Origin: Escherichia coli
Lineage (GTDB): Bacteria > Pseudomonadota > Gammaproteobacteria > Enterobacterales > Enterobacteriaceae
Length of the DNA: 64,000 nucleotides
Assembly (NCBI RefSeq): GCF_022846255.1
Contig: NZ_AP025682.1
Strand: one strand, 5' to 3'
Numbering within the stretch: the first letter of the stretch is position 1; each line of letters starts with the position of its first letter. The position numbers and the translations under genes were made by a program. Of this stretch, positions 32,945 through 37,891 are shown piece by piece. Below the pieces are notes generated by a model. The model worked only from the letters and a program-made list of their open reading frames with translations. It did not search any database and was not told the origin of the DNA.

Positions 32945-32974
32945 AAAAAAGCGCCTTTAGGGCGCTTTTTTGCA
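32945..32974 (-). terminator. Rho-independent terminator at the 3' end of the tRNA operon (symmetric, could act bidirectionally)
   Basis: aaaaaagcgcc-tttag-ggcgctttttt: GC stem flanked by A/T runs on both sides. Confidence 0.75.
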
Positions 32975-32975
32975 T

Positions 32976-33051
32976 TGGTGGGTCGTGCAGGATTCGAACC
33001 TGCGACCAATTGATTAAAAGTCAACTGCTCTACCAACTGAGCTAACGACCC
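32976..33051 (-). tRNA. lysQ: tRNA-Lys (anticodon UUU)
   Basis: 76 nt, reverse complement is GGGTCGTTAGCTCAGTTGGTAGAGCAGTTGACTTTTAATCAATTGGTCGCAGGTTCGAATCCTGCACGACCCACCA. Confidence 0.93.
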
Positions 33052-33084
33052 CTTGCGGGATTATGCTGCTTTAATCATTCAGGA

Positions 33085-33160
33085 TGGTGGGTCGTGCAGG
33101 ATTCGAACCTGCGACCAATTGATTAAAAGTCAACTGCTCTACCAACTGAGCTAACGACCC
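33085..33160 (-). tRNA. lysZ: tRNA-Lys (anticodon UUU)
   Basis: Identical 76 nt tRNA-Lys copy. Confidence 0.93.
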
Positions 33161-33208
33161 ATACGGGTGTTACCTGAAAGATTTCTACTCGGAACCAATG
33201 TTTAAAAT

Positions 33209-33284
33209 TGGTGGGTCGTGCAGGATTCGAACCTGCGACCAATTGATTAAAAGTCAACTGCTCTACCAACTGAGCTAACGACCC
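33209..33284 (-). tRNA. lysY: tRNA-Lys (anticodon UUU)
   Basis: Identical 76 nt tRNA-Lys copy. Confidence 0.93.
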
Positions 33285-33287
33285 GAG

Positions 33288-33363
33288 TGGTGGGTGATGA
33301 CGGGATCGAACCGCCGACCCCCTCCTTGTAAGGGAGGTGCTCTCCCAGCTGAGCTAATCACCC
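33288..33363 (-). tRNA. valZ: tRNA-Val (anticodon UAC)
   Basis: 76 nt, reverse complement GGGTGATTAGCTCAGCTGGGAGAGCACCTCCCTTACAAGGAGGGGGTCGGCGGTTCGATCCCGTCATCACCCACCA. Confidence 0.93.
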
Positions 33364-33414
33364 GATACTGCGCTGGATACTACAAACTACTTCCACCGAA
33401 CCCACCGTAATCAG

Positions 33415-33490
33415 TGGTGGGTCGTGCAGGATTCGAACCTGCGACCAATTGATTAAAAGTCAACTGCTCTACCAACTGAGCTAACGACCC
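33415..33490 (-). tRNA. lysW: tRNA-Lys (anticodon UUU)
   Basis: Identical 76 nt tRNA-Lys copy. Confidence 0.93.
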
Positions 33491-33492
33491 GG

Positions 33493-33568
33493 TGGTGGGT
33501 GATGACGGGATCGAACCGCCGACCCCCTCCTTGTAAGGGAGGTGCTCTCCCAGCTGAGCTAATCACCC
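33493..33568 (-). tRNA. valT: tRNA-Val (anticodon UAC)
   Basis: Identical 76 nt tRNA-Val copy. Confidence 0.93.
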
Positions 33569-33603
33569 GATACTACGCTGGATACTACAACTAACTATGT
33601 TAG

Positions 33604-33679
33604 TGGTGGGTCGTGCAGGATTCGAACCTGCGACCAATTGATTAAAAGTCAACTGCTCTACCAACTGAGCTAACGACCC
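33604..33679 (-). tRNA. lysT: tRNA-Lys (anticodon UUU)
   Basis: Identical 76 nt tRNA-Lys copy; promoter-proximal gene of the cluster. Confidence 0.93.
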
Positions 33680-33802
33680 ACTTTTTCGTTGCTTTCGGTT
33701 TTTTTGATATCCCGTGGCAACGGCGGCATATATTACTGATTTCAGACTTGAGCGCAACAAAAATTTCGATGTAGATCACTCAACTGCTTATGATTCGCAC
33801 GA

Positions 33803-36625: not shown

Positions 36626-37891
36626 TTACGGTTTGAAGTCCAATGGCGCGTTTTTGAACACTTCATATACTGCCTGGCTTGGTGGTTTCGGGATCTTCGC
36701 AAGTTTAGCTGCTGCCAACGCAGCCTGACAAAGTGCGGGATCGCCACCTTCAGGTTTGATATCCAGTAACATACCATCGGGTGCCAGTTTTATGCGCAGC
36801 GTACAGGTTTTGCCTGCATAGGACGATGCGTCATAGAACTTACTTTCGATAGCAGATTTAATCTGCCCGGCATAGTTATTGATATCGGCCCCTGATGCGC
36901 CATTGTTTTTAGTATTACCACTCCCGGCTGGCGAAGCATTGTTCCCTTTCGCCCCTCCCCCCGTTTTCGGTGCATTCTTACCAGAGCTTAGCTCACCGAA
37001 AATATCATCTGCCTCTGCGGCAGCTTTTGCTGCAGCGGCTTTTTCAGCTGCTGCTTTTGCCGCTGCCGCTTTTTTGTCTGCGGCGGCTTTTTCTGCCGCT
37101 GCTTTCTTATCAGCTGCTGCCTTTTCAGCAGCCGCTTTTTCTGCTGCTTTTTTGTCGGCTGCCGCTTTCTCTGCTGCCGCTTTCTTATCAGCTGCAGCCT
37201 TTTCAGCAGCCGCTTTCTTCTCAGCTTCTGCTTTGGCTTTTTCAGCAGCTTCAGTTGCCGCTTTCTTTCTTGCTTCAGCTGCAGCTGCTTCTGCCGCTTC
37301 CGCTTTCTTCTTCAGTGCCGCCGCGGCTGCCTCGGCTTTTTTCTGCGCTTCGGCTGCGGCTTTGGCGGCTTCTGCTTCTGCTTTTTTCTTCGCGTCTGCA
37401 GCCGCTTTCTTCGCTGCTTCTTCCGCAGCTTTTGCATCCGCTTCAGCCTTCGCTTTAGCATCTGCCGCCGCTTTCGCTGCCGCTTCTTCCGCTTGCTTCT
37501 GCTTTAACTCGGCCTGTTTTGCGGCTTCTTCAGCCTGCTTTTTCTGTTCCTGAGCCGCTAACCGCTCTTTCTCAAGTTGCTTCAGGCGTTCCTGTTCAGC
37601 CGCTTGTTTCTCACGCAGTTCTTCAGCAGCCTGCTGTTCCTTCATCTTGCGCTGCTCATCAGAACGCTTCGCGCTTGATTCCTGGCTTTGCATGCGTTTG
37701 TACTGCTCAACTACCGCACCTGAATCAACCATGACAGCGTCGATGGACGAACCACCGCCGCCTCCGGCTGAAGCTTCTATATTCTCATCGAACGAACTCC
37801 AGATCAGCGCCGCAAATAAGATGACATGCAGCACTGCTGAAATAATTATCGCCCGTTTGAGCTTGTCGTTTTGTTCGGTTGCCTTTGACAC
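36626..37891 (-). CDS. tolA: Tol-Pal system protein TolA
   Basis: 421 aa; N-terminal TM, long Ala/Lys/Glu-rich helical domain II, C-terminal domain III. Confidence 0.93.
   Translation of the reverse strand: MSKATEQNDKLKRAIIISAVLHVILFAALIWSSFDENIEASAGGGGGSSIDAVMVDSGAVVEQYKRMQSQESSAKRSDEQRKMKEQQAAEELREKQAAEQERLKQLEKERLAAQEQKKQAEEAAKQAELKQKQAEEAAAKAAADAKAKAEADAKAAEEAAKKAAADAKKKAEAEAAKAAAEAQKKAEAAAAALKKKAEAAEAAAAEARKKAATEAAEKAKAEAEKKAAAEKAAADKKAAAEKAAADKKAAEKAAAEKAAADKKAAAEKAAADKKAAAAKAAAEKAAAAKAAAEADDIFGELSSGKNAPKTGGGAKGNNASPAGSGNTKNNGASGADINNYAGQIKSAIESKFYDASSYAGKTCTLRIKLAPDGMLLDIKPEGGDPALCQAALAAAKLAKIPKPPSQAVYEVFKNAPLDFKP

Follow-up and report, generated by a model that had tools for sequence, protein, structure and literature searches.

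What kind of sequence fills positions 36980-37620 of the 64,000-nt stretch of Escherichia coli DNA analyzed here (the window), why is it covered by several long overlapping open reading frames (ORFs), and does it differ in length between strains? The sequence-only reading had described it as a near-periodic Ala/Lys/Glu-coding tract of tolA domain II, prone to in-frame length variation and giving rise to spurious ORFs in alternative frames. Our analysis makes it almost certain that the tract encodes the helical spacer of TolA and carries a tandem repeat with a variable number of units, and that the ORFs on the plus strand are by-products of its composition.

The gene at 36626-37891 on the minus strand is tolA. 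Its product matched the NCBIfam TolA equivalog NF007065 over the full length (554 bits, for a cut-off of 213) and TIGR02794 (308.4 bits, for a cut-off of 59.45), and the Pfam entry for the TolA C-terminal domain, PF06519, covered residues 325-419 (E=2e-38; 130.9 bits, for a cut-off of 25). Four solved structures (1S62, 3QDP, 1TOL, and 2X9A) aligned to residues ~292-421. The neighboring ORFs place the gene in a ybgC-tolQ-tolR-tolA-tolB-pal-cpoB cluster, with tolB and pal at lower coordinates and tolR, tolQ, and ybgC at higher coordinates, and the region was collinear with cydB-ybgE-ybgC-tolQRA-tolB-pal-cpoB of strain MG1655, with 98.8% identity over 7.6 kb. The product had been believed to have the K-12 length of 421 aa, and this was correct, as MG1655 tolA (b0739) has 1266 nt and encodes an identical protein. 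The two genes differ at 14 nucleotides, all of them synonymous (14/14), and the window is thus not K-12 itself. In two independent assemblies, FDAARGOS_497 and 21AR0303, tolA was nucleotide-identical to that of the window, an agreement that stands in for read support of the tract. The gene and its domains are positioned as follows.

36626..37891, minus strand: tolA coding sequence, 421 aa plus stop, GTG start (ORF; NF007065, TIGR02794; protein identical to MG1655 b0739)
37751..37891, minus strand: domain I, N-terminal membrane anchor, residues 1-47 (translation, predicted helix 3-34, SHLS motif)
36962..37750, minus strand: domain II, Ala/Lys/Glu-rich alpha-helical spacer, approximately residues 48-310 (composition and structural model)
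36635..36919, minus strand: domain III, C-terminal globular domain that binds TolB, colicins, and phage g3p, residues 325-419 (PF06519, solved structures)

The boundary of domain I reportedly goes back to Levengood et al. in 1991. Residues S18, H22, L29, and S33 of the SHLS (Ser-His-Leu-Ser) motif, which has been described for TolA (PMC10666116), were present in the translation, and an AlphaFold2 model predicted a helix at residues 3-34, in agreement with a single N-terminal transmembrane helix. The model was obtained from a single sequence (pTM 0.25) and was used for secondary structure alone; its confidence was low in residues 34-61 and 306-331. Domain II, which contains 39.5% Ala, 19.4% Lys, and 14.8% Glu, was predicted to form two helices, at residues 60-200 and 204-302, with pLDDT values of ~80-89; the pLDDT was 78-88 over the tandem repeat described below and dipped at residues 191-210. 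The two predicted helices are compatible with the helical hairpin proposed in the literature (PMC8928145) and, on that reading, the tandem repeat would sit in the second helix. Domain II is described as a structured helix that transduces force, and CpoB binds to TolA at residues 280-313 (PMC10666116, PMC8928145). As a spacer, domain II is joined via domain I to the TolQR motor of the inner membrane and via domain III to TolB-Pal of the outer membrane, and it passes force from the motor across the periplasm to TolB-Pal.

We then analyzed the repetitive character of the flagged tract, which corresponds to TolA residues 91-304, i.e., the C-terminal two thirds of domain II, and contains 45.8% Ala, 21.0% Lys, and 15.9% Glu. 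The alternative to be weighed here is that the tract is low-complexity Ala/Lys/Glu coding sequence without any genuine tandem repeat. As a control for periodicity, the in-frame autocorrelation of the DNA was compared with that of 500 codon shuffles, which preserve both the amino acid and the codon composition. The results were as follows.

36980-37621: residues 91-304, the whole flagged tract; observed best self-match reached in 0/500 shuffles
36980-37204: residues 230-304; reached in 0/500 shuffles (lag 15, z=6.1), strong
37205-37411: residues 161-229; reached in 320/500 shuffles
37412-37621: residues 91-160; reached in 9/500 shuffles (lag 42), weak

These results indicate that, of the flagged 640 bp, a true tandem repeat occupies about one third and low-complexity sequence the rest; periodicity beyond composition was absent from residues 161-229 (37205-37411) in the codon-shuffle test. 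Tandem Repeats Finder also detected internal periodicity, in the form of overlapping arrays with periods of 15, 30, 33, 45, and 78 bp within 37014-37234 (2.0 copies and 88% matches for the 78-bp period) and of weaker short arrays at 37333-37504. A search for repeat families returned a ten-copy family with a spacing of 15/18 nt at 36999-37267, while the further families (D2-D6) were merely 60-76% alike. Periodicity is thus confined to 36980-37267 and to a small 24-bp repeat. Accordingly, the low-complexity reading draws its support from the shuffles of residues 161-229 and 91-160 and from the poor likeness within D2-D6, but it conflicts with the shuffles of residues 230-304, with the 78-bp period, with a core that parses exactly into 13 units, and with natural insertions and deletions that consist of whole units (see below). 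We consider it very unlikely for the tract as a whole: the shuffle control refutes pure low complexity for 37013-37219, and this reading holds solely toward the N-terminus and in the middle of the tract. The description of the tract as near-periodic was therefore right for its C-terminal third, but 37205-37411 shows compositional bias alone.

The genuine tandem repeat comprises a core and degenerate units next to it, and the small 24-bp repeat lies elsewhere in the tract.

37013..37219, minus strand: core tandem repeat, 13 imperfect 15/18-bp units of the form K(K)AAA(E/D/A), residues 225-293 (unit parse; Tandem Repeats Finder periods 15, 33, and 78)
37220..37267, minus strand: degenerate units just upstream of TR1 (in gene orientation), residues 209-224; lost in the -81 and -48 nt alleles
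37428..37478, minus strand: two-copy 24-bp repeat, ADAKAKAE (Tandem Repeats Finder period 24, 2.1 copies); site of the +24 nt allele

The order of the units in the core is KKAAAE, KAAAD, KKAAAE, KAAAD, KKAAE, KAAAE, KAAAD, KKAAAE, KAAAD, KKAAAA, KAAAE, KAAAA, and KAAAE. Units with the same peptide share 67-93% nucleotide identity, and no two units have the same DNA sequence. Superimposed on the units is a higher-order repeat of 78 bp (26 aa), the two copies of which are identical at 68/78 nt and 25/26 aa, and their longest stretch of perfect identity measures 20 nt. For the region upstream of TR1, units of lower conservation have also been noted previously (PMC3477136).

Opposite to this region, the plus strand carries the two long ORFs.

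36879..37553, plus strand: 224-aa antisense ORF, Ala/Phe/Ser/Leu-rich, TTG start; by-product of the codon composition of tolA
36970..37458, plus strand: 162-aa antisense ORF, Leu/Pro/Gln-rich; by-product

Both ORFs attributed to the tract do exist and the tract does explain them, but they are antisense to tolA, and they follow from its composition and not from its periodicity. The sense strand of domain II contains 9.3% T, and the triplets TTA, CTA, and TCA occur 8 times in total; the antisense ORFs are long because this T-poor strand, composed almost wholly of GCN, AAR, and GAR codons, is nearly free of reverse-complement stops. In the three antisense frames, the stop-free runs reached 171, 225, and 181 codons, versus medians of 107, 153, and 82 codons after codon shuffling, and the 225 codons in the frame of the 224-aa ORF fell inside the 5-95% range of the shuffles (92-281). 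Since shuffled versions of domain II, which lack periodicity, still gave long antisense runs, we consider composition to be the main cause and rejected periodicity in this role. The observed runs are somewhat longer than those of the shuffles because the pure Ala/Lys/Glu part is contiguous.

The possibility that one or both of these ORFs represent a real overlapping antisense gene appears extremely remote. The points in its favor are that the stop-free runs in two antisense frames were at or above the 95th percentile of the codon shuffles, that the 224-aa ORF was open in 12/12 alleles, and that natural single-nucleotide polymorphisms (SNPs) in its frame were mostly synonymous (29 versus 4 non-synonymous). 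However, this frame shares its wobble positions with tolA, so that the SNP test cannot separate it from the constraint on tolA, from which its own apparent constraint is inherited. More generally, where an antisense ORF and the sense gene have their wobble positions in common, the ratio of synonymous to non-synonymous changes is no basis for dismissing the ORF. The ends of the 224-aa ORF also argue against a gene. A stop arises in this frame only where a sense Tyr codon follows a codon ending in C or a sense Gln codon follows a codon ending in T, and the ORF extends exactly from N339-Y340 to A113-Q114 of TolA, the nearest such contexts; in all 12 alleles, its length tracks that of tolA. Its product would be a low-complexity mirror image (AAFSAAAFLSAAAF...) initiated at a TTG codon. 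Moreover, in all 98 listed RefSeq records tolA was the sole feature annotated at this place, and hairpins resembling terminators are frequent on the plus strand of the tract (10, versus 2.4±1.6 expected). That the 224-aa ORF is translated into a hydrophobic, Ala/Phe/Ser/Leu-rich protein that co-varies in length with TolA is scarcely credible. As for the 162-aa ORF, the 29 natural SNPs found within it comprise 26 that change its amino acid sequence and one that introduces an earlier stop (at 37433, in 10/11 alleles, K-12 included), whereas in tolA 26 of these 29 are synonymous, a result that speaks decisively against the 162-aa ORF as an antisense gene. The label "spurious" given to the ORFs of the plus strand is thus the best reading. 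Long phantom antisense ORFs are always to be expected at tolA in the output of gene callers and in ORF tracks.

We then examined the length of tolA across E. coli. A megablast search of 5,426 complete genomes found the gene in 5,425 of them, and length frequencies were estimated from two systematic samples of evenly spaced rows, together 98 of the 5,425 genomes, which represent RefSeq complete genomes and hence a biased sample of the species. The 1266-nt gene was present in 26/39 full-length rows of the first sample and in 40/59 rows of the second (~67% together). The remaining genomes carried genes of 1185, 1215, 1221, 1233, 1251, 1275, 1278, 1281, 1290, 1299, 1302, 1311, 1344, or 1347 nt, which makes 15 length classes (1185-1347 nt), and all differences from 1266 nt were multiples of 3. 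Ten of the length variants were aligned pairwise to the window at the DNA level. All ten were annotated as intact tolA coding sequences (394-447 aa, without internal stops) whose coordinates agreed exactly with the matches, and their 11 indels all mapped within 37073-37267 or at 37462/37463.

37073/4: +15 nt insertion
37102/3: +36 nt insertion
37171-37185: -15 nt deletion
37187-37219: -33 nt deletion
37187-37267: -81 nt deletion (allele L007)
37208-37255: -48 nt deletion (allele L011), together with -3 nt at 37178-37180
37216/7: +78 and +45 nt insertions
37226/7: +33 nt insertion
37462/37463: +24 nt insertion (allele L005), which duplicates the ADAKAKAE unit

At the peptide level, the ten variant alleles contained 11-18 units. 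One of them, L010, has a KKAAAAE unit and was assigned ~15 units from its +36 nt insertion. Outside the tract, TolA was nearly invariant, as 41 of the 45 distinct SNPs among 12 alleles were synonymous. The expected tendency of the tract toward in-frame length variation was thereby borne out, since approximately one third of the sampled genomes differ from the window, with indels inside the tract, and since such variation has been demonstrated experimentally (PMC3477136). Assembly errors classically arise at repeats, and the differences could in principle stem from repeats collapsed or expanded during assembly, but this is highly improbable for a variable tract of just ~250 bp in which each unit has a unique nucleotide sequence, in which all differences are multiples of 3 that leave the coding sequence intact, in which identical variant lengths turn up in independent assemblies (e.g., 9 sampled records with 1311 nt and 4 with 1185 nt), and for which PCR sizing and sequencing of 234 isolates gave a matching polymorphism (PMC3477136). 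Differences in tolA length between strains should therefore be read as real alleles and not as errors. Across strains, the length of domain II thus varies in frame by whole units, and the window carries the modal allele, of 13 units and 421 aa.

The tolA repeat was first treated by Zhou, Vanoirbeek, Aertsen, and Michiels (2012, Res Microbiol 163:316), in an earlier paper that is cited in PMC3477136. The repeat itself, its polymorphism, the recombination mechanism, and the phenotypic effects are already known from a study published in 2012 by Zhou, Michiels, and Aertsen (PLoS One; PMC3477136), which located, in the C-terminal part of MG1655 domain II, 13 imperfect repeats with lengths of 15 or 18 bp and counted 8-16 units among 234 isolates, 66% of which had 13. 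In that study, contractions occurred spontaneously at frequencies up to 6.9e-5, were dependent on RecA, enhanced in a uvrD mutant, and unaffected by mutS, and they were mostly deletions of 5 units, some of which reached the degenerate upstream units (PMC3477136). In isogenic strains with 2-39 units, tolerance to deoxycholate climbed with copy number, tolerance to high NaCl combined with low pH had its optimum at 6-13 units, and susceptibility to phage fd peaked at 13 units (PMC3477136). The RecA dependence, the contraction frequency, and the phenotypes are taken here from the literature and come from one laboratory.

The window repeat is the same object at the same locus, and its allele shows no difference from the published one. 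Our frequency of ~67% for the 13-unit allele, the 78-bp repeat of five units, and the -81 and -48 nt alleles, which extend into 37220-37267, all agree with that work (PMC3477136). Two features go beyond it. We found alleles of 447-448 aa, the 447-aa one having 18 units, which lies beyond the published range of 8-16, and the +24 nt duplication at 37462/37463 is located outside the canonical tract. The finding is thus correct but ordinary and has little value as a discovery; the modest extension is that the 13-unit allele still accounts for about two thirds of present-day complete genomes and that alleles reach up to ~18 units (447-448 aa).

The indel map fits the published unequal recombination between direct repeats. 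Given the unit repeats and the 78-bp copy of five units, unequal recombination or slippage would add or drop whole units, and these gains and losses stay in frame because the lengths of the direct repeats are multiples of three. Such events would generate a set of alleles of graded length within E. coli, and each unit would presumably lengthen the helix, or shift its register, by 5-6 residues.

In the KAAAE and KAAAD units, Lys lies four positions from Glu/Asp within a matrix of Ala, a spacing that stabilizes isolated alpha-helices, and the AlphaFold2 model indeed predicted a continuous helix through the repeat. These units resemble the designed (EAAAK)n rigid linkers and the Ala/Glu/Lys peptides of Marqusee and Baldwin, which are synthetic. 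A natural counterpart is domain II of TonB, a homologous protein that serves the ExbBD motor as force transducer. This domain consists of Glu-Pro/Lys-Pro repeats and is, like domain II of TolA, a repetitive, charged, and extended spacer that spans the periplasm. The two domains are interchangeable with partial function, but that of TonB forms a polyproline-II helix, whereas that of TolA is alpha-helical, and they lack sequence similarity (PMC10666116). With respect to copy number variation, the TCT tract of ahpC and the CTGGCG tract of mutL are in-frame intragenic repeats in which, as in tolA, the number of copies alters function, and both have been discussed as hypermutable or contingency loci (PMC3477136). 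Their units of 3-6 bp are present in 3-5 copies and switch an enzyme activity, whereas the 15/18-bp units of tolA tune the length of a spacer. Unlike these tracts, the tolA repeat varies through recombination that requires RecA, and mutS has no effect on it (PMC3477136).

The tolA gene of the window (36626-37891, - strand; 421-aa product) was 100% identical over 1266 nt to that of FDAARGOS_497, an E. coli strain with a complete genome in RefSeq, whereas the flanks (16696-43415, 26 kb around tolA) were only 98.2 to 98.6% identical between the two. Since this flank identity would predict about 18 differences within tolA, the sequence comparison suggests that the window carries a mosaic or recombined allele, or that divergence is very uneven across the region. 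Collinearity with FDAARGOS_497 breaks at ~43415, just upstream of cydA, and past that breakpoint FDAARGOS_497 contains a gene cluster for methylaspartate mutase and methylaspartate ammonia-lyase; the K-12 locus used for comparison stops short of this breakpoint.

Across the E. coli collection, a tolA match was absent from 1 of the 5,426 genomes searched. Two matches lay on plasmid-labelled records, and 18 records had a tolA only 80 to 90% identical, which may reflect lineage divergence or extensive rearrangement of the repeat tract. Alleles of 447 to 448 aa were found in ~2% of the sampled genomes, including the following two, designated L003 and H85:

NZ_CP148268.1, 61-1404: tolA allele L003, 447 aa
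NZ_CP076301.1: tolA allele H85, 448 aa

In L003, an exact 78-nt duplication of five units brings the repeat count to 18, above the copy number of 8 to 16 reported among 234 isolates (Zhou, Michiels and Aertsen 2012, PMC3477136).

Between 37009 and 37429, the + strand, antisense to tolA, holds 10 terminator-like sites composed of a hairpin and a T-run, predicted from consensus matches only, versus 2.4 ± 1.6 in shuffled sequences. Judged from the sequence, these sites look like a by-product of tolA codon use, because the Ala codons GCNGC(N) are self-complementary and are then followed by TTT, the antisense of Lys codons. The same strand contains a 224-aa ORF (36879-37553, +), in whose frame natural SNPs were synonymous in 29 cases and nonsynonymous in 4. 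This apparently low dN/dS arises because the frame shares its wobble positions with the sense gene, and, as a general caveat, a low dN/dS in a wobble-sharing antisense frame is not evidence of a coding ORF.

The window also contains a cluster of near-identical repeats:

~32970-33680: repeats of 76 to 78 nt, matching the K-12 lysT-valT-lysW-valZ-lysY-lysZ-lysQ tRNA array downstream of cpoB

The spacing of this array varies somewhat among the window, K-12, and FDAARGOS_497.
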